Source of the DNA: Dehalococcoidia bacterium
GTDB lineage: Bacteria > Chloroflexota > Dehalococcoidia > Lucifugimonadales > JAGWBF01
Length of the DNA: 64,000 nt
Reading direction: 5' to 3'
NCBI GenBank assembly: GCA_963663025.1
Contig: OY760073.1
Span: forward strand, 1,833,354 to 1,897,353
Part shown: positions 7,552 through 48,917 of the stretch, one piece after another
Layout of the letters: the number at the start of each line of letters is the position of its first letter
How positions within the stretch are numbered: the first letter of the stretch is position 1
Made by a program: the position numbers and the translations under genes
The notes under the pieces: model-generated
Told to the model about the DNA's origin: nothing
What the model saw: the letters and a program-made list of their open reading frames with translations, nothing else
Databases searched by the model: none

Positions 7552-7554
7552 GAT

Positions 7555-8604: not shown

Positions 8605-8710
8605 CAGATCTCCTCCAAGCTTCACTCTTGTGATTTATAGGTTCAAAGGACACCAATATAACAGCACCGGAAGCAATGTTCAATCAGGCAGGAACGGACA
8701 CCACTGCCTG

Positions 8711-24135: not shown

Positions 24136-25071
24136 CTACCGGCAGAGCAGCTTCTCCACCTCAGCCCCGGCTCCCCTCTCCACCGCAATCCGGCATGGCG
24201 TCAGCCCTTCGTTGTTGACCGCGGCGATGTCGGCGCCGTGTTCCACCAGCAAGGCAACCACAACCAGGGGCGCGGGATTCTGGCTCGCCGCCGAGTGCAA
24301 CGGCGTCATCCCATCGTTGTCCTTGGCGGAAATCTCGGCCCCGTGCTCCAGCAGCATCCTGTGCACATCCGGGTTGGGGTTGTGCAGTGAGGCGGTATGC
24401 AGGGCGGTACGCCCGGTGCTGTTATAGAGCTTGACATCGCCGCCGAGCTCCAGGGCCAGGGTCAACACGCCCAGCTCCTTGTTGAAAGCGGCGGTGTGCA
24501 GGATGCCTGCGCCCGAGGCGGTGAGAGCTGAGGGATCAGCGCCCCGGTCCAGCAGCAAATCTATAACTTCCAGGTTGGGGTTCAGCGCCAGGGCTACGTG
24601 CAGAGGCGTGGCGCCCGCATTGTTGAGGGCTTCGATATCAGCCCCGCGGTCCACCAGGATATCAGCTATCGCCGGTTCCTTGCTGAAGCCGGCCGCCATG
24701 TGCAAGGGCGTCGAGTTGTTGAGGTCGCTCCTGATGTTGACGTCCGCTCCGGCATCCAGGACCAGGGATACCAACGCCGGATCAGTGGCGTGGGAGGCAG
24801 CCATGTGCAGTGCACTGGCGCCAAGCTCCCCGGTCTTTTCCGACAAGTCGGGGTTTCTATCGAGCTGGGCCTTTACCTCGGCCTCGCCGGCCGAAGCCCA
24901 GAACTCGTCCCCGCACAGGACGCCGCACTCCGTCAGCTCCTGGGATCCGCCGCAGGCGCTAAGGGTAGCCGCAAGGAAAACCGCTGCAACAGCCAGCGCT
25001 CCAAGGAATGCAGCCCCTGAGGAAGCCGTCCTGGCCGGACAGCTAATCAACTTCGTCAAACTACCGCGCAT
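24136..25071 (-). CDS. Ankyrin-repeat lipoprotein (about 7 ANK repeats)
   Basis: Lipobox TLSAC. Repeated G.T(P/A)LH.AA...(V/L)LL..GAD motifs. The gene lies 104 nt downstream of giant adhesin 1 on the same strand. Confidence 0.9.
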   Translation of the reverse strand: MRGSLTKLISCPARTASSGAAFLGALAVAAVFLAATLSACGGSQELTECGVLCGDEFWASAGEAEVKAQLDRNPDLSEKTGELGASALHMAASHATDPALVSLVLDAGADVNIRSDLNNSTPLHMAAGFSKEPAIADILVDRGADIEALNNAGATPLHVALALNPNLEVIDLLLDRGADPSALTASGAGILHTAAFNKELGVLTLALELGGDVKLYNSTGRTALHTASLHNPNPDVHRMLLEHGAEISAKDNDGMTPLHSAASQNPAPLVVVALLVEHGADIAAVNNEGLTPCRIAVERGAGAEVEKLLCR

Positions 25072-25175: not shown

Positions 25176-28100
25176 TCATGCCCGATACAGACCTTGCCGC
25201 TTACGGCGACGCCACAGGACGACCAGGAAACTGAACAGAGGCAGCAGCCCCAGCAGCAGCACCCACCACCAGAGAGACATCTGCGACGGTGCGAAATCCC
25301 TCTCGGCTACAAGGACAGGGACCGGCGTTGGCTCGGAGATGTCAACCTCGGCCGACTCCCGGACCGGCAGGTACAGGTCGGGCTGTCCCACCTCGAACTG
25401 AGTCTCCTGCCTCTCGGGCGCGCTGGGATTGGCTATCTGCACTCCCGCCACAGGCGTCGGCGTGGGGGTGGGAGTGGGCTCCGGTGCGGGCGTGGCCGTC
25501 GGCGTCGGGGCCGGTGTTGCCGTCGGCGTGGGTGTGGGTGTGGGAGCGGCCGCAGGCATGTACACGGGCGTCGGAGCAGGCGTTGCCGTCGGCACAGGCG
25601 TAGGAGCAGGCGTAGGAGCCGGTGTCGGGGCCGGCGTGGGCGCAGGTGTCGGCGCCGGTGTCGGTACAGGCGTAGGCGCAGGCGTCGGGGCCGGTGTCGG
25701 AGCAGGCGTTGGCTCAGGTGTGGGAACGGGCGCAGCAGGTATGTTGCTGGGACCCGGCGCAGGCGTCGGCGTCGCTGTCGGCACAGGAGTGGGTGTGGGC
25801 GTAGGAGCAGGCGTCGGCGACGGTGTGGGTGTAGGCGTCGGAGGCGGCACAGGGTCGCTGAACACCGCTACCGTGTACAGCGTGGCCAGCGTTGACCATG
25901 CGCCGTACCCCTCATCGTTCTCCGCCATCACCTCCACCTTGTACGCTGTGCCCGGCTTCATGGGAGCGCTCGGGTTGCCGGCGATGGGCACCTCGTCCAG
26001 CAATGCCTCGTTGATGGTGACCGTCCAGGTGTTGGTGTAGCTGCTCCCCTGCTCCCAGAACCGCACCCAGTACCGCTTGACCGGAGGCTTGCCCGTGTCA
26101 TCCGGGGCAGTCCAGGTGGCTGTGATGGACGTAGTGGTGTTCTTCTTGGCCGTGGGTTTCCCGGGCTTGCCCAGAGGCTCCTTCACATCGGTTACGTTGA
26201 TGGTCATCGCCACCGTGTGGTCGATCTCGGTGTCGGCATTGCCTTCCGAGTCCAGCTTGTCGCTGACCGACACCTTGATGCTGTAGCTCGTCTTCGCTTC
26301 GTAGTCCGGACTGGTGTCAGTCGCCAGCGATATCTGCCCGGTCGAGCCGTCTATATCGAAGGATGCAGCGTCGGTCCCAGTTATGGTGTAGTACAAAGTT
26401 GAGCTGTCCGGGTCCGTGGCCGCCACCGCAGCGCCCACGTTGGATCCGCCTGTAGAGTTCTCAGCAATGCTGCGACTGGGGCTGGCAGGCAGCTTCGGGT
26501 CCACGTTGTCCAGGCTGCCGCTGTCCGACCAAGGGCTGTCGCCCTCATCGTTGGTGGCCTGCACCTGCACGTTGTAGTTGACGCCTCCCACCTGGCCGGT
26601 GATGGTCGTCGAGGTCCCCGTTCCTGTGAAGGATGCGTCAGTCCAGGTGGACGCGCCCTCCTTCTGGTAGCGCACATCGTAGTCGGTGATGGCCGGCTTG
26701 CCTGTCATGTCTGGGGCTGTCCAGGACACCTTCAGCGTGGTGTTGTCCGAGTCGCCCGAGGCGGTCACCTTCGGCGCATCGGGCTTGTCCGGGGCCTCGT
26801 CCACGTCGGTTACGTTGATGGTCACCGGGATCACGTAGTCGCCCGGGTTGTTGGGCACAAGGCTGAAGCTCTGGGCGTTGGCCCCGGCCTGGGCCGCCTT
26901 CACCGTCACAATGACGCTGTAGGCCTTCTTGGCCTCGTAGTCCAGGCTGTCGCCGGTCTTCACCTTGATCTGGCCCGATGAGCTCTCGATGGTGAAGGTG
27001 GAAGCGTCGGTCCCGCTCAGGCTGTGGGTCAGGGTGTAGCTGTTGGGGTTGGATGTCGCGGTCACCGGAGCGCCCACGTTGGCCCCCGCCGCCGAGTTCT
27101 CATCGACGTCCCGGCTCACGCCGCCGGCCTTCGTTATGGCTGTGCCGCTGGCGGACCAAGCCCCGTTGCCCTCGTTGTTGACTCCCCGCACCTGCACCTC
27201 GTAGCTCTTGCCCGAGGTCAGACCGGTCAGCGTCGTCGAGGTTCCCGTGCCGGTGAAGCTGTGGCTGCTCCAGTTGGATGCCCCGTGCTGGCGGTACTGC
27301 ACATCGTAGTCGCTCAGGGCAGGCTTCCCCGTCATGTCCGGTGCCGTCCAGCTCACGTCGATCTTGCTGGTGGGCGTGGTCGTGTTGAGCGAAACGCTTA
27401 TGGAAGGCGCGGGAGGAGGCTCGGCAACATCATCCACCTGGATGATTACCACGATCTCGTAGTTGAGAGTGGTGCTGCCCTGCTTGGTGGCCGCAATCTC
27501 CACTTCCACGTCGTAATGGTCCGTGGCTTCGAAGTCCAGGGTGGTCCCGCTCTTGACCGTTATCTTGCCGGTGCTGCTGGCAATCTCGAACTTGCCCTTG
27601 TCCGTTCCGTCCAGGGTGTGGGTCTTGGTGTAGCTGCTGTCGATGGTCTTGGTTACGGTGCCTACCTCGGCGTTGGCGGCGGAGTTTTCATCTATGTTCA
27701 GGGTTACAGAGTCCGCGTTGGTGGTGGCGTGGCCCGCATTGGACCAGCCGCTGTCACCCTCGTCGTTCTTGGCCTTCACCTGCACCTCGTAGTGCTCATT
27801 TTCGGTGAGGCCGCTGATGGTGGTGGAGGTGCCGGTTCCGGTGAAGGAATGGCTGGTCCAATTCGACGAGTGGGCCACCCGGTACTGCAGGTCGTAATCG
27901 CTGACGGCCGGCTTGCCGGTCATCGTCGGGGCTGTCCACGACACATCCAGCTTGGTCTTGGGTGTCGTGGAGTTGGGGGTCACCGTCGGCGTGGAAATGG
28001 TGGGCGGCTCGTTAACGTCGGTTACGTTGATGGTCACCGGGATGATGTAGTCGCCCGGCGCGTTGGGGTCCAGGGTGAAGCTCTGGGCATTCGCCCCCGC

Positions 28101-31100
28101 GGACGCCGCTGTCACCGTTACCGTTACGCTGTAGGTCGTCTTGGTTTCGTAGTCCAGGTTCGTTCCCGACTTCACGCTTATCTGCCCGGTGCTGCTGCTT
28201 ATCTCAAACTTTCCGGCATCCGTTCCGCTCAGGGCATGGGTCAAGGTGTAGTTGTTGGTGTTGGCTGTGACCGTCACCGCCGCGCCGACGTTGGTGCTGG
28301 CCGCCGAGTTCTCTGCGATGCTGCGGGTTATGGCGGTTGAGCTGGCGGCGACCGTTATCCCAGTGCCGGTGGGAGACCAGGGGCTGTCGCCCTCATCGTT
28401 GGTGGCCAACACCTGCACATCGTAGCTCTTGCCCTTGGTCAAGCCCGTCAAAGTCGTGCTGGTGGTGGCGCCGGTGAAAGAGGCATCGGTCCAATCGCCC
28501 GTCCCGGTGAGCCTGTACTGCACATCATAGTCGGTGATGGCCGGCTTGCCGGTCATGTCCGGCGCACTCCAGGACACATCCAGCTTGGTGGACGGCGCGG
28601 AGGAATTGACCGTAACCGTCGGCGCAGCCATCCTGGAAGGAGGCTCGCTCACGTCGGTGACGTTGATGGTCACCGTGGACGTGTCGTCGATGGTGTTGTC
28701 CGTTCCCTCCTGGGCATTCTTCCCGTCGGTTACGTTCACCGTCACGCTGTAGGAGGTCTTGGCTTCGTAGTTGGGGATGTTCCCCGTCTTTACCTTTATC
28801 TGGCCGTCACCGCTCCCGATGGTGAACTTGCTGGCGTCGGTCCCGGTCAGCGAGTAGGTCAGGGTGTCTTTGTCGGCGTCGGTGGCGGATACGGCGGCGC
28901 CGATGTTGGTCCCCGCCGCCGAGTTCTCGTCGATGCTCCGGGTGGCAGTGGCCGGGATCACCGGGGCAGCGTTCTCCTTGGTCTTCTTCGACCCGGAAGC
29001 CGACCAACCGCTGTTGCCCTCGTCGTTGATGGCTTTCACCTGCACATCGTAGGTGGTACCCGCCGTCAGACCGGTCAAGGTCGTGCTGGTTCCCGTTCCG
29101 GTGAAGCTGTGGGAAGTCCAGGTGGAGTCGCCGCTCTTCTTGTACTGCACATCGTAGTCGCTGACGGCCGGCTTGCCCGTCATCGTTGGCGCGGTCCACG
29201 AAATTTCCAGCTTGTACTTGGGATCGGTAGCATGGGCCTCTACCGTCGGCGCGGAGATGGTGGGCGGCTCGTTCACGTCGGTTACGTTGATGGTTACCGG
29301 GATGGTGTAGCTGCCCGGCGCGTTGGGGTCCAGGGACTGGGCGTTGGCGCCCCCTCCTGCCGCGGCCACCGTTACGGTCACCGTTACGCTGTACGAAGTC
29401 TTGCTCTCGTAGTCCGGGATGTTGCCCGTCTTTACCTTTATCTGGCCCGTGGTCGAGCCGATCTCGAACTTGCTGGCATCCGTCCCGCTCAGGCTGTGGG
29501 TGTAGGTGTAGCTGCTGTTGGCCTTTGCCGTAACCGCCGCGCCGATGTTGGTGCCGGCGGCTGAGTTCTCGGCGATGGAGCGGGTTACGCCCCCGGCCGT
29601 GGTTATGGCTGTGCCGCTGTCGGACCAAGCCCCGTTGCCCTCGGCGTTGACAGCCCGCACCTGCACCTCGTAGGTCTTGCCCGAGGTCAGACCGGTCAGA
29701 GTGGCGCTGGTCCCCGTTCCGGTGAAGGATGCGTCGGTCCAGGAGGAGTCACCGGAGAGCCGATACTGCACGTCGTAGTCGCTGACGGCCGGCTTGCCGC
29801 TCATCTGAGTGGTCGTCGGCGCGGTCCAGGAAGCGTCGATCTTGCTCGTCGGCGTCGTGGTGTTGGCCGCCACCGTCGGCGTACCCAGCTTGGGCGGAGG
29901 CTCGTTCACGTCGGTTACGTTGATGGTCACCGGGATCACGTAGTCGCCCGGCGCGTTGGGGTCCACCGACTGCGCGTTGGCGCCCTGCGTCTTTGCGGCC
30001 GCCGTGACCGTCACGGTTACGCTGTAGGAAGTTTTGGCTTCGTAGTCCGGGATGTTCCCCGTCTTCACCGTTATCTGCCCCGTCGAGGAGCCTATCTCGA
30101 ACTTGCTGGCATCCGTTCCGCTCAGGGCGTGGGTGTAGGTGTAGGCGGTGTTGGTAGCCTTGGCCGTTACCGCCGCTCCCACGTTGCTTCCCGCCGCCGA
30201 GTTCTCGGCGATGGAACGGGTAACCGAGCTGGAGGTGGTGATGGCGTTGCCCGTGTCGGACCATGCCCCGTTGCCCTCGGCGTTGGTGGCCCGCACCTGA
30301 ACGTCGTACTTCTTGCCCGAGGTCAGACCGGTCAGACTGGTGCTGGTCCCCGTTCCGGTGAAGCTGTGGCTGCTCCATGTCGATTCCCCGGTCTGGCGGT
30401 ACTGCACATCGTAGTCGCTGATGGCCGGCTTGCCCGTCATGGTCGGCGCAGTCCACGACACATCCAGCTTGGTGGTCGGCGTCGTGCTGTTGGCCGCCAC
30501 TGTCGGCGCAGCCATCTTGGGTGGCGGCTCGCTCACGTCGGTCACGATGATGAGGGCGCTGTAGGTTACGTCGAGGATGTTCCTCTGGAGGTTGTTCTCC
30601 ACGGCCCGGAGGGTGAGGCTGTAGCTGGTCTTGCTCTCGAAGTCCGGGACGTTGCCCGTCTTGACCTGTATCTGGGCGGACTGGGCTGTCTTGTAGCCGG
30701 TGTCCGTGCTGAGCTTGAACTTGGAGCCGTCGGTCCCGCCCAGGGTGAACTGCAGCGGGTAGTAGTCGGTGGCGTTGACGTTGAACTTCCCGCCCACGTT
30801 GCCGTTGACCGCCGTGTTCTCCGCCAGGTACAGGATGAGCGACGACCCGGACCAGTGGCCGGGCCCTTCGTCGGCGATCTGGGAGCGCACCTGCACCTCG
30901 TACTCCTTGCCGGCGGTCAGGCCGGTGATGGTCGTGCTGGTGGCCAGGCTGTTGGTGGTGTCGGGCATCTCCGTCCAGGAGCTGGTGCCCCACTCCCGGT
31001 ACCGCACATCGTAGTCGTTCAGCGTGGTGCCTGTCATCGGCGTCGGCGCGGTCCACGATACGTCCAGGGCCGTCGTGGGGTTGGTGGAGTTCTGGGCCAG

Positions 31101-32933
31101 CGTCGGCCTGTCCACGTTGGGCGCGCGGACGTCGTTCACGTTGATCTGGATGTTGCCCCCCACACTCGTGTTCTCGACGGTGTACCGGAAGTTCCCGCTG
31201 TACGAGGTCTTCGTCTCGTAGTCCAGCGTCGTCCCGTCCTTGACCGTGATCTGGCCCGTGCTGGAGTCGATGTCGAAGTAGGTGGCAACGTCGCCGCCGA
31301 GGGAGTAACTGCTGCCGTCACCGGTGTTCGCCCCACCCACGCTCCCCACCACGGTGTCCTTGGGCTTGTTCTCCTGGACGCTCTTGGTCTCCTTGCAGTC
31401 GAAATGCTTCACCTCCAGGGAAATCGAGTCGTGAAGTCCGTCGGGGTCCGTCGCCGTGTAGTGGAAGGAGTACCAGTTCAGGGGCGGATGCCTGAGGCTC
31501 GCCACGGCGTAGCCGTTGGAATTGATGGTGGTGCTGACGACCTTGGACGAACCCGCCGTGTAGGTCAGCGTGTCGTCTTCCGGGTCGTAGAAGTGCTTGG
31601 TGTGGCCGCTGCTGGGGACATAGGTGACGGAGCCGCTGTAGCAGTGGCCGTATTTCGACCAGAACTGCCCGAGAAGCTGGGAGCCGCTGCTCTTGATGCT
31701 GGCGTAGGGCGCGTGGTTGCCCGACGTGTCCGACGCCCGGATGTGGATGATCACGGACGGGGTGCTCTTGTTGGAGGCGTAGGCTTGGTAACAGGCTGCC
31801 TTGGTGGGGAACCACTTGGTGGGTGTGCCGCTCAGGGTGCGGGTGGAAGCGTTCCAGGAAATCCCGGGGGGCAGCTGCGCCCCCTTGCTGCCGCATCCCT
31901 GCGAGAGCTTGTAGGTGATGTTGGGGTCGCCGGTGGCCGCCGGCAGCGTTACGTTGACGGCAACGCCCTGCGTCCACTCCAGCAGGGTGGGCGGTGCGGT
32001 GACCCAGGATAGGCCCGCCTGGATCTGTCCGCCCTGCGCGCTGACCAGGCCCTCCTCCTGCCCGCCGTTCCGTTGCTGTTGCTGGGACGGCTCCGGCGTG
32101 GGCGTAGGAGTCGAGGTCGGTTCAGGGGTGGGCTCCTGCGTTGGTTCCGGCGTAGGCTCAGGAGTCGGCTCCTCAGTAGGTTCGGGAGTGGGCGTCGGCG
32201 TGGGGTCGGGCGCCGGCGTGAATGGACCCGAAGCCGATGAGTTGGTCCAGGCGCTGTCGCCGCTGCTGTTGCGGGCGCGCACGCCTACGACGTAGGTCTT
32301 GGCGTTGTCCGCGCTGATGTCAATGCTGGCGGATGGGTGGTCCAGGGCCGCCAGGTCCCAGCTTGCGCCGTCGTCGGAGCTGTAGGTTACGTGGTAGCTG
32401 GTTGCGCCGGAGACGGCATCCCACGACGCCGTGATCGAGCCGTCGGACCGGGCCACGGAGACTGAGGCGACGGGGCCGGGCGCAGGATCGGGCGTGAAAG
32501 GCCCGGCGGGCGGGGAGTTCTTCCAGGCGCCCCAGCCCTGGTCGTTGCCGGCGCGCACACCGACGATGTAGGTCTTGGCGTTATCGACGCTGAAGGTGAG
32601 GCTGTTGGTTGGAACGTTCCGGTGATCATCCACCGGAGCGTGCCAGCTTGCGCCGTCGTCGTCGCTGTAGGTTACGTGGTACTTGGTCGCGCCTTCGATG
32701 GCATCCCAGCTTGCCGTCAGGGCGCCGTCGGACCGGGCCACCGACACCGAGGACGGCGTGGCAAGGGTCGAGGCCTCTCCCTTGCCGCCCTGGGACGGGG
32801 TCAGGGTGGCGGCCATGGAGCTGAAGAGGAGGCAGAACACCAGGAAAAGGTGCATGGCCAAGCGGACGGGAGCATCGGGGAGCTTGGCCAGATTCATCAG
32901 CTTGGCGTTCAAGGGATTATCGGCTGCCTGCAA
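25176..32933 (-). CDS. Giant cell-surface protein 1 (2585 aa) with alternating cadherin-like and fibronectin type III modules, a PT-rich stalk and a C-terminal TM anchor
   Basis: TTG start with GAGGAGGAG SD (32938-32946). Signal peptide present. FN3 blocks (...[17 protein letters not shown]...Y.VQVRA.N.EG.G.WS). Cadherin-like blocks ([10 protein letters not shown](V/I)GAAV...[10 protein letters not shown]...[10 protein letters not shown]). The tail is ...[32 protein letters not shown]. Confidence 0.9.
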
Positions 32934-33030
32934 CTGTCTCCTCCTCTATCGGGGCCTCTGCCCAACCCTCACTACAGGACATGACGCTGTATTGGGAGGG
33001 GCAATGTTCAAGAGCGTAACTACGGCTGCT

Positions 33031-34888
33031 CGTTCGCCCCTCGAGTCCCCTCAGGACGAACGGGGAACCTGGAAATCGAAGGATGAACGGGGAACCTGGG
33101 ACTGGAAGGGCGTGGGTATGACGAATGGCCGCCCCGTCATTGCGGCGAAGGCCGCAATCCAGAAAAGTCTGGGACTGGGGCAGGTTTCCTACTTTGATGC
33201 TTGCTGTGATGTTGGAGCCGGACTGGAACCCGGCAACGCTCCGTCCTGGATTGCGGCCTTCGCCGCAATGACGAAAGGCGTTGCACTCCGTTCGTCCTGA
33301 GGGGACTCGAAGGATGAACGGAGAACCCGGGACTGGAACAGCCTGGGTATGACAAAGGGCCGCCCCGTCATTGCGGCGAAGGCCGCAATCCAGGAAAGTC
33401 TGGGACTGGGGCAGGGTCCCTACTGGAATGCCTACCGTGATGTTGGAGCCGGTCTGGAACCCGGCAGCGCTCCGTCCTGGATTGCGGCCTTCGCCGCAAT
33501 GACGAAAGGCGTTGCTGCCCGTTCGCCCTTCGAGTCCCCTCAGGGCGAACGGAGAGCCTGGGACTCGAGGGATGAACGGAGAACCTGGGACTGGAACAGC
33601 TTGGGTATGGCGAAGGGCCGCCCCGTCATTGCGGCGAAGGCCGCAATCCAGAAAAGTCCGGGACTGGGGCAGGCTTCTTACTGTAGTGTCTACCGTGATG
33701 CTGGAGCCGGACTGGAACCCTGCAGCGCTCCGTCCTGGATTGCGGCCTTCGCCGCAATGACGAAAGGCGTTGCTGCCCGTTCGCCCTTCGAGTCCCCTCA
33801 GGACGAACGGAGAGCCTGGGACTCGAGGGATGAACGGAGAGCCTGGGACTGGAACAGCGTGGGTGTGGCGAAGGGCCGCCCCGTCATTGCGGCGTAGGCC
33901 GCAATCCAGGAAAGTCTGGGACTGGGGCAGGCTTCTTACTGTAGTGTCTACCGTGATGTTTGAGCCGGACTGGAACTCGGCAGCGCTCCGTCCTGGATTG
34001 CGGCCTACGCCGCAATGACGAAAGGCGTTGCACTCCGTTCGTCCTGAGGGGACTCGAAGGATGAACGTACAATCGTGGACTGGAACAGCCCGCGCATGAC
34101 GAAGGGCGTTGTTCTCCGTTCGTCCTGAGGGGACTCGAAGGATGAACGGAGAACCCGGGGCTGGAACAGCCTGGGTATGACAAAGGGCCGCCCCGTCATT
34201 GCGGCGTAGGCCGCAATCCAGAAAAGTCCGGGACTGGGGCAGGTTCCCTACTGCAATGCCTACTGTGATGTTGGAGCCGGACTGGAACCCGGCAGCGCTC
34301 CGTCCTAGATTGCGGCCTTCGCCGCAATGACGAAAGGCGTTGTTCTCCGTTCGCCCTTCGAGTCCCCTCAGGACGAACGGAGAACCAGGAACTCGAAGGA
34401 TGAACGGGGAACTCGGGACTCGAAGGATGAACGGGGAACTCGGGACTCGAAGGATGAACGGGGAACCTGGGACTGGAAGGGCGTGGGTATGACGAAGGGC
34501 CGCCCCGTCATTGCGGCGTAGGCCGCAATCCAGGAAAGTCTGGGACTGGGGCAGGTCCCCTACTGTAATGCCTGCTGTGATGCTGGAGCCGGAGTGGAAC
34601 CCGGCAGCGCTCCGTCCTAGATTGCGGCGTAGGCCGCAATGACGAAAGACGTTGTTCTCCGTTCGTCCTGAGGGGACTCGAAGGATGAACGGGGAACCAG
34701 GGGCTGGAACAGCGTGGGTATGGCGAAGGGCTGCCCCGTCATTGCGGCCTTCGCCGCAATCCAGAAAAGTCCGGGACTGGGGCAGGCTTCTTACTGTAGT
34801 GTCTACCGTGATGCTGGAGCCGGACTGGAACCCGGCAGCGCTCCGTCCTAGATTGCGGCCTTCGCCGCAATGACGAAGGGCGAACGGC
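33031..34888. repeat. REP array 1: seven composite units, each a type-A 140-bp inverted-repeat element plus type-B hairpins with 27-bp subrepeats
   Basis: GTCATTGCGGCG anchors at 33136, 33367, 33625, 33883, 34195, 34507 and 34738. Unit lengths are 231/258/258/312/312/231. Confidence 0.9.
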
Positions 34889-34930
34889 ATAGGGATCAGG
34901 GGGTTGGGGTTATGCAAGGGTCTCCGTAGC

Positions 34931-34948
34931 GGGGGGGGGGGGGGGGGG
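34931..34948 (-). repeat. Homopolymer tract: G18 on the plus strand, C18 on the adhesin strand
   Basis: Counted directly in the sequence. The paralogous position in locus 2 carries 23 nt. Confidence 0.9.
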
Positions 34949-35100
34949 TAGTTGCGGCTGCGGGGGCGCAGCCCACGCGGGCCGGGGTGGTCGTTCCTTC
35001 TGCTGTCCTGTTCGTCAGGTTCAATGCGTTGGCCTCCACCAGCGATGAACTTATGACTTGTCAAACCCACAGGTCGGGATACGCCTTGATTGCGTCATAC

Positions 35101-35250: not shown

Positions 35251-35283
35251 ATGGCGCGCCGGAGGACCAGCCGGCTGACCTGT
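35251..35283 (+). pseudogene. 5' fragment of a marR paralog, a scar of the segmental duplication
   Basis: ATGGCGCGCCGGAGGACCAGCCGGCTGACCTG matches the first codons of marR at 44676, with a 30-nt internal deletion between the GCCGGAG/GGCGGAG repeats. The upstream GATCGGGAGA...GAGGG is also conserved. Confidence 0.6.
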
Positions 35284-35373
35284 ATCCCTGGGCAGCCGGC
35301 CCGGTCAACTGACCTGTAAGAGAATGGCGGGCAAGGCGCTGCCGTAGGGCATCGCCTTACCCGCAGGCCGGTC

Positions 35374-38300
35374 TTATGCCTGGTACAGGCGTTGCCCCTT
35401 CCGGCGACGCCACAGGATGGCCAGGAAACCGAACAGCGGCAGCAGCCCCAGCAGCGCCACCCACCACCACAGAGACATCTGCGACGGCGCGGGATCCCTC
35501 TCTACCACAAGATCACGGACCGGAGCAGGCTCAGGGATGTCAACCTCCGCTCCACCCAGCCCATCACTGTCATCATCGGCCGCTTCCCGGACCGGCAGGT
35601 TAAGGTCGGGCTGCCCCACCTCGAACTGGGACTCCTGCCTCTGGGGCGCGCTTGGATTGGCTATCACCTGTCCCGCCACGGGCGTCGGCGTGGGCGTAGG
35701 TGTGGGCGTAGGTGTGGGATCAGGCGTAGGTATGGATGTCGGGGCCGGCGTTGCCGTCGGCACAGGTGTAGGGGCGGGCGTAGGCGCCGGCGTAGGTACT
35801 GCCGTCGGGGCCGGCGTGGGCGCTGCCGTCGGTACAGGCGTCGGGGCAGGCGTAGGAGCAGGTGTTGGCGCCGGTGTCGGCGCGGGCGTAGGCGCAGGTG
35901 TGGGAACGGGCGCAGCAGGTATGTAGCTGTGACCGGGGGCCGGCACAGGCGTGGGTGTCGGAGTCGGCGACGGTGTGGGGGTGGGGGTCGGAGTGGGAGC
36001 AGGCGTCGGAGACGGTGTAGGCGTAGGAGTAGGAGTGGGCGTAGGCGTCGGCACAGGGTCGCTGAACACTGCCACCGTGTACAGCGTAGCCAGCGTTGAC
36101 CATGCGCCGTACCCCTCATCGTTCTCAGCCATCACCTCCACCTGGTAGGCCGCGCCCGGCTTCATGGGCACGCTGGAGTTGCCGCCCGTGGGCACCTCGT
36201 CCAGGAGCGCCTCGTTGATGGTGACCGTCCAGGTGTTGGTGTAGCTGCTACCCTGCTCCCAGAACCGCACCCAGTAACGCTTGACCGGAGGCTTGCCCGT
36301 GTCATCCGGGGCAGTCCAGGTGGCGGTGATGCTCGTTGTGGTGTTCTTCTTGGCCGTCGGCTTCCCAGGCTTGCCCAGGGGCTCCTTCACGTCGGTTACG
36401 TTGATGGCCACCGCCACGGTGTGGTCGATCTCGGTGTCAGCGGCGCCCTCCGAGTCCAGCTTGTCGCTGACGTTCACCGTGACGCTGTAGCTGGTCTTGG
36501 CCTCGTAGTCCGGGCTGGCGTCGTCGGCCAGCGTTATCTGCCCGGTCGAGCCGTCTATATCGAAGGACGCAGCGTCAGTCCCCGTCAGGCTGTACTCCAG
36601 GGTATCCCCGTCCGGGTCGGTGGTTGTTACCGGGGTCCCCACGTCGGTTCCGCCTGTAGAGTTCTCGGCGATGCTGAAGGTGGGGCTGGACGGCAGCCTC
36701 GGGTCCACGTTGTCCAGGCTGCCGCTGTCCGACCAGGAGCTGTCGCCTTCATGGTTCCTGGCCAGCACCTGCACATCGTAGTTGACGCCTCCCACCTGGC
36801 CGGTGACGCTCGTCGAGGTCCCCGCACCCGTGAAGGAGTGGGAGGTCCAGGTGGAATCGCCGCTCTTCTTGTATTGAACATCGTAGTCGGTGATGGCCGG
36901 CTTGCCCGTCATGTCCGGGGCTGTCCAGGACACGTTCAGCGTGGTGTTGTCCGAGTCGCCCGAGGATGTCACCTTCGGCGCATCGGGCTTGTCCGGCGGC
37001 TCGTCCAGGTCGTTCACGTTGATGTTGACGAAGGCCGAGGCGTCTATCCCGGTGTCGGCGTTGCCGTCCTCGTCCTTGCCGTCGCTGACCTGCACCGTGA
37101 CCAGGTAGTTGGTCTTGGTTTCGTAGTCCAGGGTTGTGCCGCTCCCGACGGTTATCTGTCCGGTGGAGGAGTCTATGTCGAACTTGTCCGCATCCGTCCC
37201 GATCATGGAGTAAGTCAGCGTGTCGCCGTCGGGGTCGGTGGCGGTCACCGGGGCGCCCACCTTGTCGCCCGTGGAGGAGTTCTCGTCGATCTCCCGTACC
37301 ACTCCGAAGAGGCCGATGTCCTTGAACTTCGCCTTCTCATTCACGTCGGTAACGTTGATGGTCACCGGGATGACGTAGTCGCCCGGGTTGTTGGGAACAA
37401 GGCTGAAGCTCTGGGCGTTGGCCCCGGCCTGGGCCGCCTTCACCGTCACGATGACGCTGTAGGAAGTCTTGGTCTCGTAGTCCAGGTCCGTGCCGTTCTT
37501 GACCGTTATCTGGCCGGAGCTGCTGGCGATCTCGAACTTGGAAGCGTCGGTCCCGCTCAGGCTGTGGCTGAAGGTGTAATTGTTGGGGTTGGAGGTGGCG
37601 GTCACCGGAGCGCCCACGTTGGCCCCCGCCGCCGAGTTCTCGTCAACATCCCGGCTCACGCCCCCGGCCTTCGTTATGGCTGTGCCGGAGTCCGACCAAG
37701 CCCCGTTGCCCTCGTTGTTGACCCCCCGCACCTGCACCTCGTAGCTCTTGCCCGAGGTCAGACCGGTCAGAGTCGTCGAGGTCCCCGTGCCAGTGAAGCT
37801 GTGGCTGCTCCAGTTGCTTGCCCCGTGCTGGCGGTACTGCACATCGTAGTCGCTCAGGGCAGGCTTCCCCGTCATGTCCGGGGCTGTCCAGGAAACGTCT
37901 ATCACGCTGGTGGGCGTGGCCGTGTTGAGCGAGACGCTTATGGACGGCGCGGCCGGCGGCTCGTTCACATCGGTTACGTTGATGGTGACCGTGATGGTGT
38001 CGTCGATCTTGGTGTCCGCGTTGTCGTCGGTGTCCTTCCGGTCGCTGACCTCCACGACCACGCTGTAGGAGGTCTTGGCTTCGTAGTTGGGGATGTTGCC
38101 GGCCTTGACGCTTATCTGTCCGGTGTTCAGGCCGACGTTGAACTTGGCGCCGTCGGTCCCCGACAGGGTGTAGTACAGCGTGTGCCCCTCGGTGTCGCTG
38201 GCTGTCACCGCCGCGCCCACGTTGGTCCCCGCCGCCGAGTTCTCGGCGATGCTGCGGGTAGCCGTGGTGTCCGGGAACTCGGCGTGCACGTTCTTGTCCT

Positions 38301-41300
38301 GGGTGTTGGTACTGCCGGAAGTTGACCAGGCGCTGTTCCCCTCGTCGTTCTTCGCCTTCACCTGCACCTCGTAGCTGGTCCCTTCGGTCAGACCCGTCAG
38401 CGTCGTGCTGGTCCCAGTGCCTGTGAAGGTGTGGGAAGTCCAGTCGGAATCGCTGGTCTTCTTGTACTGCACATCGTAGTCGGAAATGGCAGGCTTGCCC
38501 GTCATGTCCGGGGCTGTCCAGCTTACGTCCAGCTTGGTCTTGGGCGTCGCCGCGTTCTGGGTAACCGTCGGCGCATCGGGAGCGGACGGAGGCTCGTTCA
38601 CGTCGGTAACGTTGATGGTCACCGCTATGGTGTCGTCAGCCGTCGTGTCCGCCGTGCCGCTGGTGTTCTTGCCGTCGGTTACGTTCACCGTGACGCTGTA
38701 GGATGTCTTGGCCTCGTAGTCGGGGATGTTCCCCGTCTTCACGGTGATCTGCCGGGTGGTAGCGTTGAAATCGAACTTGCTGGCGTCGGTGCCCGTCAGC
38801 GAGTAGGTGAGCGTGTTGAAATTCGTGTTATTGGTGTCCGGGTCGGTGGCGGCAGCAATCACCGCGCCAATGTTCGTCCCTGCTGCCGAGTTCTCGGCGA
38901 TGCTCCGCGTGGCGGTGTCGTCGCTGAACTCGGGACCTTCGTTCACGTCGGTTACGTTAATCGTCACCGGTATGACGTAGTTGCCCGGCGCGTTGGGGCT
39001 GAGGCTGGAGCTCTGGACCTGCGCCACCGCCGCCGTCACCGTGACCGTTACGCTGTAGGAGGTCTTGGTCTCGTAGTCCAGGCTTGTTCCCGTCTTCACG
39101 GTGATCTGGCCGGTGCTGCTGGCGATTTCGAACTTGGAAGCGTCGGTCCCGCTCAGCGCGTGGGTCAGGGTGTAGCTGTTGGGGTTAGAGGTAGCGGTGA
39201 CAGCCGCGCCCACGTTGGCCCCGGCGGCCGAGTTCTCGGCCACGCTGCGGGTTACGGCGCCGGCCTTCGTTATGGCTGTGCCGCTGTCGGACCAGGCCCC
39301 ATCGCCCTCGTCACTGCCGGCCCGCACCTGCACCTCGTAGCTCTTGCCCGAGGTCAGACCGGTCAGCGTCGTCGAGTCCCCCGTGCCGGTGAAGCTGTGC
39401 GAACTCCAGGTGGATGTCCCCGTCTGCCTGTATTGCACATCGTAGTCGTCCACGGCGGGCTTGCCCGACATCTGCGTGGTCGTCGGCGCGGTCCACGACA
39501 CATCCAGCTTGCTGGACGGCGTCGTGCTGTTGGCTGCCACCGTGGGCGCGCCCATCTTGGGCGGCTGCTCGTTAACATCGGTAACGTTTATGGTGACCGG
39601 GATGATGTAGTCGCCCGGCGCGTTGGGGTCCACTGACTGCGCGTTTGCGCCCTGCGTCTTTGCGGCCGCTGTGACGGTGACCGTTACGCTGTAGGACGTC
39701 TTGCTCTCGTAGTCCAGGCTGGTCCCGCTCTTGACCGTTATCTGCCCCGTGCTGCTGGCGATCTCGAACTTGGAAGCGTCGGTCCCGCTCAGCGCGTGGG
39801 TGTAGGTGTAGGTGGTATTGCTAGATTTGGCTGTCACCGCCGCGCCCACGTTGGTCCCGGAGGCCGAGTTCTCGGCGATGGAGCGGGTTACTGCGCTGGC
39901 GTCGGTGATGGCGCTGGACGAGTCGGACCAGGGGCCGTCGCCCTCGTGGTTCCCGGCCCGCACCTGCACCTCGTAGCTCTTGCCATTGGTCAGACCGGTC
40001 AGAGTGGTGCTGGTGCCCGTGCCGGTGAAGCTGTGCGAACTCCAGGTGGATGTCCCCGTCTGCCTGTATTGCACATCGTAGTCGTCCACGGCGGGCTTGC
40101 CCGACATCTGCGTGGTCGTCGGCGCGGTCCACGACACATCCAGCTTGCTGGCCGGCGTCGCGCTGTTGGCTGACACCGTGGGCGTACCCATCTTCGGCGG
40201 CGGCTCGTTTACGTCGGTTACATTGATGGTCACGGTGATGGTGTCGTCCACCACATCGTCGGCGGTGTCGTCGCTGGCCTTCTTGTCCTTGACGCTCAGG
40301 GTCAGGGTGTAGGAAGTCGTGGTCTCGTAGTCCAGCGCGGCGGCCACGTCGATGGTCCCGTTGTACTGGCCCAGGCTGAAGTCGCCGACCCCCGTGCCGG
40401 TCATGGAGTAGTACAGCGCGTCATTGTCATCGTCCGTGGCGGCCACCTTGCCCACGTCATCCCCGACCTCCGCGTCTTCCGCGATCGTCAGGGTAATGCT
40501 GTCCGAGGAGAACTCGGGCTCGGTCTGGTCGTGGGTCTTCACCTCGTCGGTGTCCGACCACGCCCCGTCGCCCTCGTCGTTGGCGGCCCGCATCTCCACC
40601 TGGTAATCGGTCTTGTAGGTCAGGCCCGTGATAGCGTAGTACTTCAGGTCCTTGCCCAGGTCGTCCACCTGTGTCCAGGTGCTGTCGCTCTTCTTCTTGT
40701 AACGCACGTCGAAGTGGGTGACGGCCGGCTTGCCCGTCATCGTGGGAGACTGCCAAGTCACCGCTATCTGGTACTTGGGGCTGCTCGCCTGCTGCTTCGC
40801 CGACGGGTCCATCTTGGGCGGAGGCTCGTTTACGTCGGTCACGCTGATGGTGATCGTTATGGTGTCGTCAACCACCGTGTCCGCCGTGCCGCTGCTGTCC
40901 TTCAGGTCGCTGACGCCCACGGTTACGGAGTAGGAGGTCGTGGACGATTCGTAGTCCAGCGTCGTGCCGGAGCCGACCTTTATCTGGCCGGTGGCGCTGT
41001 CTATGGTGAAGGATGATGCGTCGGTGCCGCTCAGCGAGTAGGTCAGCGTGTCGCTCTCGGTGTCGGTGGCGGTGACCGCCGCGCCCACGTTGACATCCGC
41101 CGCCGAGTTCTCGGCGATGCTGCGGGTGGCCGTGTCGGCGGAGAACTCCGGGTCAACGTTCTTGTCCTGCGTCTTGCCTTCGCCGGGGTCCGACCATGAG
41201 CTGTTGCCCTGGCTGTTTTTTGCCTGCACCCGCACCTCGTAGGTGGTGCCCTCGGTCAGGCCGGTGATGGTCGTTTCCAGGGTGCTGCTGCTGTATTCGT

Positions 41301-42570
41301 TGCCCCACTGTATCCAGTTCGTCTCGCTCTTCTTCTTGTATTCCACGAAGTAGCCGCTGACCTTGGGTGCGCCGTAGGTGGCGGTCCAGTCCACGTCCAG
41401 CTGGGTCTTGGGGGTGGTGGTGTTCTGGGTCACCGTGGGCGCGTTCGGCTTGTGCGGCACCGCCGGCGAAGCCGTCGTGGCTTCCGCCACGTCGGAGTAT
41501 TTCCAGCCGCAATGCCCGAAGTCGAGGTGGCTTGAATTGAACCTTATGGCGAACATCACTTCGTAGGTGGTGCTGGATTCAAGGCTCTCGATGGCCTCCT
41601 TTGACGTGTTGGCGTTTACGGTTTTCTCAGACCAGGTGCTGTCGCTCTTTTTTTTCCATTCGATTTTCGCTTGGTCTGCGCTGCCGTTGGCGGAGTTTAT
41701 CGACAACTGGAGAGCATAGAGGCTGTGCGATGGGTTGGTGGATGCGCTGACCGAGAGGGACGACTTCAGGCTGGAGCAGCCCACTCCGGCCGTCTCCAGC
41801 ACCTCTATCTTGAAGGACAGCATGACGGTGTCGGTGCCGTCGGTGGCGGAGTAGCGGTAGGTGGCCTGGGTACTGGTTACCGTCGGCGTTCCCGTGATGG
41901 TCCGCGCCGAAGCGTCGAAGGACAGGCCGGACGGCAGGCTCGGGGAGAGGGAGTAGGTTATCGTTCCGCTGCCTCCGGTGGCCTCCGGCAGGGTCAGGGT
42001 GGTGATGGCATCGTCCTTGTGCCAGGACTGGTCGGAGATGGTTGAGCCGTTGAAGGAGAGGTCGGCGTTCTGGGGCTGCACCGCGGCCTCGATGTCGCCT
42101 TCGGGTTCCGGCGTGGGATCGGGTTCCGGCGTGAAGGGCCCGGCAGACGGGGAGTTCTTCCAGGCGCCCCAGCCCTGGTCGTTCCCGGCGCGCACGCCAA
42201 CGATGTAGGTATTGGCGTTGTCAACGCTGAAGGTGAGGCTGTTGGTTGAAACGTTCGTGTGGTCGTCCACGGGGGCGTGCCAGCTTGCGCCGCCGTCGTC
42301 GCTGTAGGTTACGTGGTACTTGGTCGCTCCTTCGATAGCGGCCCAGCTTGCTGTCAGCGAGCCGTCGGACCGGGTCACCGACACCGAGGATGGCGTGGCG
42401 GGGATCGAGGCCTCCCCCTTGCCGCCCTCGCGCGGGGTCAGGGTGGCGGCCATGGAGCTGAGGAGGAGGCAGAACACCAGGAAGAGGTGCACAGCCAAGC
42501 GTACGGGAGCATCGGGGAGCTTGGCCGGATTCATGGGCTTGGTATCCATAGGGCTATTGGCTGACTGCAA
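35374..42570 (-). CDS. Giant cell-surface protein 2 (2398 aa), a paralog of protein 1 with cadherin-like/FN3 modules, a PT-rich stalk and a C-terminal TM anchor
   Basis: TTG start with GAGGAGGAAG SD. The N-terminal roughly 170 aa and C-terminal roughly 700 aa are near-identical to protein 1, while the central modules are diverged. Confidence 0.9.
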
Positions 42571-42665: not shown

Positions 42666-44299
42666 CCCGTTCGCCCTTCGAGTCCCCTCAGGACGAACGG
42701 AGAGCCTGGGACTCGAGGGATGAACGGAGAACCTGGGGCTGGAACAGCCTGTGTATGACAAAGGGCCGCCCCGTCATTGCGGCGTAGGCCGCAACCCAGG
42801 AAAGTCTGGGACTGAGGCAGGTTCCCTACTGCAATGCCTACTGTGATGTTGGAGCCGGACTGGAACCCGGCAGCGCTCCGTCCTGGATTGCGGCCTTCGC
42901 CGCAATGACGAAAGGCGTTGCTGCCCGTTCCCCCTTCGAGTCCCCTCAGGGCGAACGTACAATCGTGGCTTGGAACAGCCCGGGTATGGTGAAAGGCGTT
43001 GCCTTCCGTTCGTCCTGAGCCTGTCCTGAGGCTCTCGAAGGGAGGGACTCGAAGGATGAACGGGGTACCCGGTACTGGGACAGCCTGGGTATGACCAAAG
43101 GCCGCCCCGTCATTGCGGCGTAGGCCGCAATCCAGGAAAGTCTGGGACTGGGGCAGGTTCCCTACTGCAATGCCTACTGTGATGTTGGAGCCGGTCTGGA
43201 ACCCGGCAGAGCTCCGTCCTGGATTGCGGCCTTCGCCGCAATGACGAAAGGCGTTGCTGCCCGTTCGCCCTTCGAGTCCCCTCAGGGCGAACGGAGGACT
43301 TGGGACTCGAAGGATGAACGGAGAACCTGGGACTGGAACAGCCTGGGTGTGGCGAAGGGCCGCCCCGTCATTGCGGCGAAGGCCGCAACCCAGGAAAGTC
43401 TGGGACTGGGGCAGGTTTCCTACTTTGATGCTTGCTGTGATGTTGGAGCCGGACTGGAACCCGGCAACGCTCCGTCCTGGATTGCGGCCTTCGCCGCAAT
43501 GACGAAAGGCGTTGCACTCCGTTCGTCCTGAGGGGACTCGAAGGATGAACGGAGAACCCGGGACTGGAACAGCCTGGGTGTGGCGAAGGGCCGCCCCGTC
43601 ATTGCGGCGTAGGCGGCAATCCAGGAAAGTCTGGGACTGGGGCAGGCTTCTTACTGTAGTGTCTACCGTGATGTTGGAGCCGGTCTGGAACCCGGCAACG
43701 CTCCGTCCTGGATTGCGGCCTACGCCGCAATGACGAAAGGTGTTGTTCTCCGTTCCCCCTTCGAGTCCCCTCAGGGCGAACGGAGAGCCTGGGACTCGAG
43801 GGATGAACGGAGAACCTGGGACTGGAACAGCTTGGGTATGGCGAAGGGCCGCCCCGTCATTGCGGCGAAGGCCGCAATCCAGAAAAGTCCGGGACTGGGG
43901 CAGGCTTCTTACTGTAGTGTCTACTGTGATGTTGGAGCCGGCCTGGAACCCGGCAGAGCTCCGTCCTGGATTGCGGCCTTCGCCGCAATGACGAAAGGCG
44001 TTGCTGCCCGTTCGCCCTTCGAGTCCCCTCAGGACGAACGGAGAGCCTGGGACTCGAGGGATGAACGGAGAACCTGGGACTGGAACAGCCTGGGTGTGGC
44101 GAAGGGCCGCCCCGTCATTGCGGCGAAGGCCGCAATCTAGGAAAGTCTGGGACTGGGGCAGGCTTCTTACTGTAGTGTCTACCGTGATGTTGGAGCCGGA
44201 CTGGAACCCGGCAGCGCTCCGTCCTGGATTGCGGCCTTCGCCGCAATGACGAAAGACGTTGTCCTCCGTTCGTCCTGAGGGGACTCGAAGGATGAACGG
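42666..44299. repeat. REP array 2: six composite units paralogous to array 1
   Basis: Anchors at 42773, 43109, 43367, 43598, 43856 and 44114. Unit lengths are 336/258/231/258/258. Confidence 0.9.
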
Positions 44300-44351
44300 C
44301 ATAGGGATTAGGGGGTTGAGGTTATGCAAGGGGATCCGAAGCCCCTGGAGC

Positions 44352-44374
44352 GGGGGGGGGGGGGGGGGGGGGGG
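44352..44374 (-). repeat. Homopolymer tract: G23 on the plus strand, C23 on the adhesin strand
   Basis: Counted directly in the sequence. It occupies the position homologous to 34931-34948. Confidence 0.9.
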
Positions 44375-44572
44375 TAGTTTCGGCCGTGGGGATGCAGGCC
44401 CCGCAGGCCGGGGTGGTTGCTGCCTTTGCTGTCGTATCCGTCAGGTTCAATGCGTTGGCCTCCACCAGCGATGAACTTACGACTTGCCAGTCCCACACGC
44501 TATGATGTATTTTGATTGCGCTACACGATAAATGTAATAGCAAATAGTTGTTAAATACAATGACTTCTTAAT

Positions 44573-44675: not shown

Positions 44676-45152
44676 ATGGCGAGCCGGAGACCGCAGGACG
44701 ACCCTGACAGCGCGGCGGAGGACCAGCCGGTTGACCTGGAGCCGTACGTAACCGGCCTGGTTAACGTGGTCGATAAGGGGATGACGAGCGAGGTGCTGCC
44801 CTACGGCATCACCCTGCCCGAGTTCAGCCTCCTCAGGAACTGCATGGACAAGGAAACCACGGCCACCCAGCTTGCCCAGGTCCTGCCGGTTGACGGCGCC
44901 CGCATAAGCCGCTTGGTGAATGTGCTGGTGGACAGGGGTCTGCTGCGCAGGAGGCGCCTGCGCAGCGACAGGCGCATCGTGATGCTCAGCCTCTCCGAGC
45001 GGGGGAGGGAGCTGACTTCCCAGGTGGTCCAGGAGATGGAGAGCTACAACGCCAACCTCATGGAGGGCATCAGCCGGGAGGAGATGCGAACCTTCCTGGA
45101 CGTCGCCTCCAAGATAATCGCCAACTACACAGCCAGCCAGGGGGAGGAGTAG
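44676..45152 (+). CDS. MarR-family transcriptional regulator
   Basis: Winged-helix region TATQLAQVLPVDGARISRLVNVLVDRGLLRRRRLRSDRRIVMLSLSERG. Confidence 0.85.
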   Translation: MASRRPQDDPDSAAEDQPVDLEPYVTGLVNVVDKGMTSEVLPYGITLPEFSLLRNCMDKETTATQLAQVLPVDGARISRLVNVLVDRGLLRRRRLRSDRRIVMLSLSERGRELTSQVVQEMESYNANLMEGISREEMRTFLDVASKIIANYTASQGEE

Positions 45153-46208: not shown

Positions 46209-46498
46209 GTCCGTTCGCCCTTCGAGTTCCCCCTTCGAGAGCCTCAGGACAGGCTCAGGGCGAACGGACAACCCGGCACTGGAACAGCTTGGGTGTGGCG
46301 AACGGCCGCCCCGTTATTGCGGCGGAGGCCGCAATCCAGGAAAGTCCGGGACTGGGGCAGGTTCCCTACCGGAATGCCTACCGTGATGTTGGAGCCAGAC
46401 TGGAACCCGGCAGCGCTCCGTCCTAGATTGCGGCCTTCGCCGCAATGACGAAGGGCGTTGCTGCCCTTTCGCCCTGAGGGAACTCGAAGGGCGAACGG
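46209..46498. repeat. Solo copy of the same composite REP unit (B + A + B) that is amplified in arrays 1 and 2
   Basis: The B hairpin, then GTTATTGCGGCGGAGGCCGCAATCCAGG ... CTAGATTGCGGCCTTCGCCGCAATGAC, then another B hairpin. Confidence 0.85.
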
Positions 46499-47187: not shown

Positions 47188-47263
47188 TGGTGGAGCTGGG
47201 GGGACTCGAACCCCCTACCTCTTCAATGCCATTGAAGCGCTCTCCCGGTTGAGCTACAGCCCC
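47188..47263 (-). tRNA. tRNA-Ala (anticodon GGC), CCA encoded
   Basis: Hand-folded cloverleaf: GGGGCTG TA GCTC AACCGGGA GAGC G CTTCA ATGGCAT TGAAG AGGTA GGGGG TTCGAGT CCCCC CAGCTCC A CCA. The G3:U70 Ala identity pair is present. Confidence 0.9.
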
Positions 47264-47309
47264 ACGAGGAACCCCAATATAGCAGAGCTTCCCCATGGGC
47301 GCAACGAAG

Positions 47310-48712: not shown

Positions 48713-48759
48713 TGGGCACAAAAATCCCCCTCCCTTGATGGGAGGGGATTAAGGGGAGG

Positions 48760-48900: not shown

Positions 48901-48917
48901 ATGGAGGAGGTCAGGGT

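Follow-up and report, generated by a model that had tools for sequence, protein, structure and literature searches.

In a 64,000-nt stretch of the genome of a Dehalococcoidia bacterium (GenBank assembly GCA_963663025.1, contig OY760073.1, positions 1,833,354 to 1,897,353; hereafter the window), a run of 18 cytosines (C18) lies on the minus strand in the leader of a gene for a giant surface protein, adhesin 1. Our analysis suggests that this tract is a slippage-prone repeat descended from a proline-coding run of a decayed second marR gene (marR2), and that it may modulate the frame of a short upstream open reading frame (uORF), the ribosome cover of the leader RNA, and the Rho-dependent attenuation of the adhesin gene. 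We consider this reading the most likely one and assign it a probability of roughly 40%. The tract is probably a mutable expression dial and not the joint of an in-frame gene fusion.

The C18 run occupies exactly residues 34931–34948 of the minus strand, where the first-pass annotation had placed it, in the context ...GCAGCCGCAACTA-C18-GCTACGGAG (more widely, ...CGCAGCCGCAACTA-C18-GCTACGGAGACCC...), and the template strand for transcription in the adhesin direction carries G18. A paralogous tract of 23 cytosines (C23; residues 44352–44374, minus strand), which Tandem Repeats Finder reported as G23, occupies the homologous position in the leader of a second adhesin gene and is followed by GCTCCA-GGGG, forming a C-run/loop/G-run hairpin like that of the relatives described below. 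Matches to a C10 pattern were confined to the 2 tracts (23 overlapping matches, compared with a mean of 1.29 in 100 dinucleotide-preserving shuffles), and no other homopolymer of at least 9 bases was found in the 64-kb window. Pure homopolymers of about 8 bases or more are considered hypermutable, a length that both C18 and C23 exceed.

Homopolymers of 18–23 bases are error-prone in their exact length on all sequencing platforms, which is the point in favor of an artefact, either a poly-G product of two-color chemistry or a homopolymer miscall. Such an origin is extremely unlikely for the tracts themselves: (i) both are internal, with unique sequence on each side; (ii) they occupy homologous positions in 2 diverged paralogues; (iii) they have orthologous counterparts in independently assembled genomes; and (iv) the tract lengths differ between close relatives (described below), which is a strong argument against an assembly artefact and is the behavior expected of slippage-prone repeats. 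Every statement on reading frame given here hangs on the assembled tract length, which may be wrong by at least 1 base; the related genomes come from long-read projects of metagenome-assembled genomes (MAGs), in which long homopolymers may likewise be miscalled by at least 1 base. The length variation is that of the tract family, seen in assemblies of paralogues and relatives and not in reads of the window tract.

The 2 adhesin loci share one architecture. Adhesin 1 (25176–32933, minus strand) has 2585 residues with fn3 and cadherin repeats, and its paralogue adhesin 2 (35374–42570, minus strand) has 2398 residues, 47–75% identical to adhesin 1 in aligned segments. Upstream of each gene stand, in the same order, 2 sigma-70-like promoters, a ~130-nt leader, the tract, tandem repeats over ~2 kb, and the gene's own ribosome-binding site (RBS; GAGGAGGAG) ahead of a TTG start codon; the succession of promoter, conserved leader, tract, repeat array, and adhesin gene described in the first-pass annotation is therefore correct. 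At locus 1, promoter-like site P1 (35147–35176, minus strand; TTGACA-18-TAATAT) is kept in locus 2 and in relatives, and P2 (35099–35128, minus strand; TTGACA-18-TATAGT) shows 11 of 12 matches. Transcription is predicted to start near residue 35092 from P2, which places C18 at about +145 to +162. Sigma-70-like promoters were predicted only upstream of the tract, and no promoter-like site was predicted between the array and the adhesin start.

This position makes promoter-spacing models inapplicable, and a promoter-spacer role was rejected on that ground, the tract lying about 150 nt downstream of the P2 −10 box. A role as an intrinsic terminator was also rejected, as the C-run/G-run hairpin lacks a following U-tract in every relative and no terminator was predicted on the adhesin strand.

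The gene marR1 (44676–45152, plus strand), which encodes a MarR-family regulator, is divergent from adhesin 2 and serves as the anchor of the conserved neighborhood. A 22-codon remnant of it, marR1' (35251–35316, plus strand; MARRRTSRLTCIPG...*), lies beside the locus 1 promoters. This remnant shows locus 1 to be an old segmental duplicate of locus 2 that includes the divergent promoter region, and it marks where an old tandem duplication ends, the duplicated unit comprising promoter, leader, tract, array, and adhesin gene. The leaders of the 2 loci are about 77% identical, and at locus 1 the G-run partner of the tract has been lost through a 9-nt deletion. Directly downstream of adhesin 1 is a gene for an ankyrin-repeat protein of 311 residues (24136–25071, minus strand), a eukaryotic-like protein typical of sponge symbionts.

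The conserved start of the leader is not the GTG at residue 35070, from which translation had been proposed to enter the tract. This GTG lacks a Shine–Dalgarno sequence, and its immediate 5′ context is not the same in the 2 loci. The "about 40 conserved codons" that were to follow it are conserved between the 2 paralogues as nucleotides and not as codons. The GTG frame of locus 2 stops at residue 44310, 40 nt past the tract, and in relatives the GTG frame is broken by an indel of 1 nt that lies past the GTG region but before the conserved start. The longest block identical between the loci (41 nt; 35013–35053, minus strand) contains a GGAGG sequence (35033–35037), an 8-nt spacer, and a TTG codon (35022–35024). 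In the alignment column of TTG 35024, 6 relatives have TTG, one has GTG, and one has ATG, each preceded by GGAG(G/A); the alignment of this region to the start of marR2 is backed by a BLAST match to the relative L024. Interchange among TTG, GTG, and ATG is the signature of a true initiation site. By this comparison, TTG 35024 is the conserved start, and it is the start of the decayed marR2.

From this codon, a relic uORF of 42 codons (34896–35024, minus strand; LNLTNRTAEGTTTPARVGCAPAAATTPPPPPRYGDPCITPTP*) runs through the tract, which forms codons 26–32. The counterpart in locus 2 (44322–44450, minus strand; ...TTPPPPPPPAPGASDPLA*) also starts with TTG and has 42 codons, with a post-tract frame unlike that of locus 1. 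In both loci, the uORF crosses the tract as 5–7 prolines and stops 30–50 nt past it, at residue 34898 in locus 1 and residue 44324 in locus 2, and in neither locus is the frame of the downstream array joined from the TTG. Reading from TTG thus far places each assembled locus in a short-uORF state, with different post-tract frames. The locus 1 tail is ...RYGDPCITPTP*, and the homologous ...PCITSTP* tail would be read in locus 2 only at C21 or C24. Changes of tract length toggle the post-tract frame between 2 short tails and one 2-kb open frame. At locus 1, a tract of C19 or C16 would fuse the TTG frame to the array frame, as would C22 or C25 at locus 2; that the fusion is one slip away is trivial, being true of any frame.

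Relatives of the locus were found via MarR homologues, all in sponge-associated Dehalococcoidia/Chloroflexota MAGs (MarR identity of at most 66%). There, marR2 comes after the same promoter pair, encoded on the adhesin strand between the divergent promoter and the adhesin gene, and its ORF continues across the C-run into a conserved tail that ends at a conserved stop. In L014, the run is C15 and is read as ...ILANLEDTAST-PPPP-RFWGREIGPA...GVMDERIGNG* (abridged, STPPPPRFWGRE...DERIGNG*). The run is C16 in L011, C9 in L054, C7 in L024 (QCPPRWGRR...), and C6 in L028 (SRPPWRGRE...), and the site in L032 has no C-run (AFLLSRGTK...). In most cases, CTA stands before the C-run of the relatives, and a loop of 4–6 nt and a run of 4–5 G come after it; locus 2 of the window reads CTA-C23-GCTCCA-GGGG.

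The window uORF keeps the Shine–Dalgarno sequence, the TTG start, and about 25 N-terminal codons, followed by the tract and a short tail. It enters the tract in the codon phase of L014 (ACC CCC) and, at C18, continues as R-Y-G-D, compared with R-F-W-G in L014. Four features, namely the CTA-Cn context, the codon phase, the loop plus GGGG at locus 2, and the post-tract codons R-(F/Y)-(W)-G, lead us to infer that the window uORF arose from marR2 by internal deletion and that the Pro-Pro coding run of the marR2 tail gave rise to the tract. As an alternative, the tract region may correspond to an N-terminal part of the gene, since it can be aligned to a region around codon ~45 of L024 marR2. An exact 24-nt core of the leader had no match in the genome contigs or the metagenome contigs.

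Two frame irregularities were observed among the relatives. In L011 marR2 (9074–9748, minus strand), a 1-nt insertion scrambles the last helix (...DDVAGCLHGYRSQDTGEPGRYGIY); the frame is restored over C16, GAA, and C6, and the conserved tail ...GVINERIGNG* is still read. Either a frameshift has been compensated here, or the sequence contains an error. In L001 and L002, which belong to one species from different samples, the adhesin region (about 2000–9130) is called as 4 ORFs (427, 710, 816, and 396 residues) and as 2 ORFs (1148 and 1153 residues), respectively, a difference that reflects either strain frameshifts or assembly errors.

Downstream of the tract, array 1 (33040–34900, minus strand; 7 units of 231, 258, or 312 nt) fills the leader from the tract to the adhesin start, and array 2 (42680–44300, minus strand; 6 units of the same repeat family) lies in the leader of adhesin 2. 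Over the two arrays together, unit lengths are 231, 258, 312, and 336 nt, and each unit consists of palindromic modules, namely paired ATTGCGGC-N4-GCCGCAAT hairpins with a spacing of 111 nt, along with a CCGTTC...GAACGG hairpin. The family is dispersed in both orientations over the window (40 hairpin matches); outside arrays 1 and 2 it occurs at 1–930, 2378–2753, 6316–6608, and 46262–46498, and as array 3 at 47350–48890. It sits in intergenic DNA and piles into tandem arrays of 1.2–1.9 kb, and by its sequence it looks like a miniature inverted-repeat transposable element (MITE) or repetitive extragenic palindrome (REP). Array 3, with a period of 381, lies in the spacer (47264–48917) between the seryl-tRNA synthetase gene (48918–50189, minus strand) and the tRNA-Ala(GGC) gene (47188–47263, minus strand). 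At the gathering score, no Rfam family was found in the leader or the arrays, and the sole match in the window was tRNA-Ala.

The first-pass annotation had taken the open frame that covers array 1 as a translated leader. The frame itself exists (32917–35070, minus strand; 717 codons, GTG start, crossing the tract), and in both loci the open array frame ends 12 nt past the adhesin start codon; its in-frame join across the tract holds only from GTG 35070 and is absent in the paralogue. Translations of the 2 array ORFs gave nothing meaningful in Pfam. Over the 13 units, the array frame contains no stop codon, compared with 1.9–4.2 expected (P of about 0.15 to 0.015, from 95 unique substitution variants, with about 2% of the possible substitutions making a stop). 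All 13 units of arrays 1 and 2 differ by multiples of 3 only, without indels of 1–2 nt, and the more diverged copies of array 3 contain indels of 1–4 nt; the multiples of 3 arise largely because the length changes come from a 27-nt sub-repeat and modules of 78 or 81 nt. We take the lack of stops as not significant and the multiples of 3 as no more than a hint, which may reflect chance or constraint. The ORF has no RBS, no support from a protein family or homologue, and no convincing sign of codon-level constraint. Judged by its sequence, it is a series of palindromic repeats and not a gene, and we correct the annotation in this sense.

A model in which translation starts at GTG 35070, runs through about 40 codons, and is joined by C18 to the 717-codon frame, carrying ribosomes to the adhesin start, can appeal to the existence of this ORF and to its end just past the adhesin start. 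We consider it very unlikely in view of the GTG without a Shine–Dalgarno sequence, the unlike upstream bases, the indel in relatives, the early stop in locus 2, and an array without a protein-family match or significant stop avoidance.

Tracts of this kind recur in the related loci. In 1.04 Mb of these loci, there are 14 C or G runs of at least 9 bases, 12 of which lie within 2.6 kb of marR1; this marR1-proximal zone makes up 30% of the sequence (enrichment P = 2.5e-5, or 2e-4 with orthologues collapsed). Runs of at least 14 bases number 8, compared with 0.16 expected from base composition. The C is on the sense strand of the gene that is preceded or entered in about 13 of the 14 tracts, and an A stands before the tract in 12 of the 14. 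On the other side of marR1, C11–17 tracts lie upstream of a methyltransferase gene; those of 5 lineages (C11–C15) are 60–180 nt away from it, and in L029, L064, and L065 a C12 or C17 tract abuts the −35 hexamer of this gene. In L057, a C14 tract immediately follows the TATAAT box that stands upstream of a marR homologue. In L042, a C16 tract (10416–10431) forms the extreme 3′ end of marR1 (...ANYMRIAS-PPPPP); all 3 post-tract frames there stop within 3–25 codons, and a change of length would swap the C-terminal tail of the regulator. A MarR profile scan of the metagenome contigs yielded 15 loci, none of which had a tract of at least 8 bases.

The lengths of these tracts vary among close relatives. 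Corresponding tracts of L011 and L014 have 16 and 15 bases, and 11 and 14 bases. In one metagenome sample, 2 haplotypes that are 95.8% identical over 8.5 kb carry C17 (L064, 6276–6292) and C12 (L065, 6287–6298), the tract abutting a TTGACA −35 box and being flanked by 80 identical bases on each side. From its sequence, this tract is a candidate for a promoter-proximal phase-variable or "rheostat" tract; the T-tract "rheostat" of H. pylori sabA is a promoter-associated tract. With lengths that differ among paralogues (18/23), orthologues (16/15 and 11/14), and co-occurring haplotypes (17/12), the general idea of a slippage-type switch put forward in the first pass is viable.

The strand bias of the tracts, which places G on the template strand, is compatible with a DNA structure, in which a G-quadruplex of the template G18 or G23, or an i-motif of the C strand, would block or pause RNA polymerase or replication. 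In principle, an intramolecular quadruplex can form from a run of 15 G or more. Yet the related tracts of 9–12 bases, which occupy equivalent sites, are too short for a three-tetrad quadruplex, and we give this explanation little credence.

The leader RNA around the tract has the features of a Rho utilization (rut) site. Sites of this type are C>G-biased, weakly structured stretches of 60–90 nt (PMC12360218). Windows of 78 nt over the tract contain 44–46 C and 10–11 G (C/G ratio of 4.4–4.6), the strongest C>G bias in the 2.2-kb leader; compared with shuffled controls, the leader has a poorer fold (z = +1.6), in which the tract is predicted to be unpaired, and the tract RNA is the least structured part of the leader. 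The tract region thus has the rut composition as defined in the cited review. No rho gene was found within the 64-kb window. Ribosomes translating uORFs can mask rut sites, as described for tnaC, speF, and cruR, and ribosome stalling raises Rho-mediated polarity (PMC12360218). That the tract might act on ribosome traversal of the leader and on Rho polarity, as suggested in the first pass, is viable, and the tract RNA resembles a Rho loading site.

We propose the following mechanism. The C-rich, G-poor, weakly structured tract and its flanks would offer Rho a loading site on the nascent leader transcript. Translation of the uORF would be held up by the run of prolines, and the paused ribosomes would cover the poly-C site and compete with Rho. 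Replication slippage would change the tract length and hence the post-tract frame, a change that RNA-polymerase slippage would probably blur. In 2 of the frames, ribosomes would come off the RNA within 20–50 nt of the tract, and the ~2 kb of leader beyond would be bare and open to Rho; in the third frame, they would follow the polymerase to the stop that overlaps the adhesin start. The tract length would thereby modulate premature termination in the long untranslated leader, and the net effect may be heritable, reversible expression variation of each giant fn3/cadherin surface protein. A more specific version, in which the poly-C is a Rho-loading pad in a polyproline uORF whose length modulo 3 decides whether ribosomes accompany RNA polymerase to the adhesin start over a 2-kb array kept free of stops and of indels other than multiples of 3, and in which the tracts at marR, adhesin, and methyltransferase genes would be clade-wide contingency loci, seems to us improbable as a whole; if true, it would provide sponge symbionts with surface proteins that are phase-variable independently of each other.

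The same leader features could serve an attenuator that is indifferent to tract length, either a constitutive Rho loading site or a polyproline-stalling uORF sensing elongation factor P (EF-P) or the proline supply, comparable with tnaC, cruR, and mgtP. The rut-like composition and low structure, the Shine–Dalgarno-led uORF that has 5–7 prolines and ends 30–50 nt past the tract in both loci, and the known uORF/Rho attenuators (PMC12360218) are in line with this. However, relatives have only C6 or C7, or no run at all (L032), at the same site, and the marked contrast in tract length among haplotypes that are otherwise almost identical points to mutability as the property that stands out. We hold a length-independent attenuator to be unlikely.

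The main rival to the proposed mechanism is a neutral relic, i.e., a microsatellite in the dead marR2 that was lengthened by slippage without frame constraint and has no effect on the adhesin. Several observations speak for such a relic and weigh against a regulatory tract. First, marR2 has been cut to a 42-codon remnant whose peptide is unconstrained, differing at 11 of 26 residues between the 2 loci, as expected for a dead gene. Second, tract length peaks precisely in the genome whose marR2 is dead, the window tracts (18 and 23) exceeding any in intact marR2 (15–16), which fits neutral expansion after the loss of constraint. Third, in L001 and L005, the nearest relatives, a deletion has removed the tract along with the 3′ half of marR2 and the adhesin is kept, and locus 1 has also lost its G-run partner. 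Fourth, the adhesin carries a strong RBS of its own, so translational coupling is not required. In addition, selection holding the array frame open could not be demonstrated from the stop counts, and transcription should itself slip on very long C runs, so that a sharp ON/OFF effect of the frame would be smeared out.

On the other hand, a pure tract is kept in both paralogues despite the divergence of the adhesin segments (47–75% identical) and the leader (about 77%), and the sole perfectly conserved 41-nt block of the leader is the ribosome-binding site and start of the uORF. Neutral drift in marR2 would also leave aside the independent, same-strand intergenic tracts before the methyltransferase gene in 5 lineages, one of them abutting a −35 box, and the strong local enrichment and strand bias of the tracts. 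Taken together, we regard the neutral relic as somewhat less likely than the proposed mechanism but as a substantial possibility.

A modulating tract in the adhesin leader would work most like a homopolymeric contingency locus, but it departs from the classical placement of such loci and also resembles uORF/Rho attenuators. As in the G/C contingency loci of Campylobacter, Neisseria, Haemophilus, and Helicobacter (PMC8355987, PMC5084427, PMC2823697), a long pure run accompanies genes for surface proteins in a bacterium that lives with a host, and its length varies among relatives. Unlike in those loci, the window run lies in a relic uORF about 2 kb upstream and not in the adhesin ORF or promoter, so any effect must be indirect, through polarity or attenuation, and the host is an uncultured sponge-symbiont Chloroflexota. 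In the relatives, the run near the 3′ end of a coding sequence, where changes of ±1 would swap the tail, is reminiscent of the C-terminal sequence switching of H. canadensis (PMC2823697). The Bordetella fim C-stretch (PMC1891110) is likewise a poly-C run placed to regulate adhesin or fimbrial genes, and the C12/C17 tracts at the methyltransferase −35 box of the relatives resemble it; by contrast, the window tract is about 145 nt downstream of the predicted −10 box, neither in nor beside the promoter.

With the uORF-dependent Rho attenuators (tnaC-tnaAB, speFL, cruR-bfrG, and mgtL/mgtP; PMC12360218), the window locus shares a long leader with a short Shine–Dalgarno-led putative uORF that overlaps or lies beside a C-rich, unstructured stretch, the stalling motif being a polyproline run here and RAPP in cruR (PMC12360218). 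It differs from them in that no ligand or sensor logic is evident and that the candidate rut core is itself a hypermutable repeat. The leader switch of C. difficile flgB (PMC7446863) is similar in that a heritable, reversible DNA change in a 5′ leader alters Rho-dependent premature termination and phase-varies a surface structure, and dissimilar in that the change there is a recombinase-flipped invertible element and here would be a simple-sequence repeat.

Two further genes of the window are noted. A single-module type I polyketide synthase of 3388 residues (8711–18877, minus strand) comprises KS, AT, DH, MT, ER, KR, and ACP domains followed by a second KS domain; it may resemble the sponge-symbiont "Sup" polyketide synthase. 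A Cache-domain gene (19064–20413, minus strand) contains an inner 387-nt tandem repeat (19288–20122; 2.2 copies, 77% matches), which points to an internal domain duplication.

Sponge-associated Chloroflexota are abundant and uncultured, and their fn3, cadherin, and ankyrin "eukaryotic-like" proteins are thought to mediate recognition by the host. In the paper library searched, we found no account of phase variation in sponge symbionts or Chloroflexota, and the comparative poly-C pattern described here is new. If the tract is a neutral relic, the analysis is still a correction of the 717-codon ORF and a record of a regulator gene decaying into a uORF. The tract idea is directly testable in existing long-read metagenomes. 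The leader would be a natural case of a simple repeat possibly acting through a leader uORF and Rho instead of through an ORF or a promoter. The length-varying poly-C tracts in the neighborhood of the MarR regulator, the giant surface protein, and the methyltransferase suggest that mutualists share the contingency-locus strategy of mucosal pathogens.

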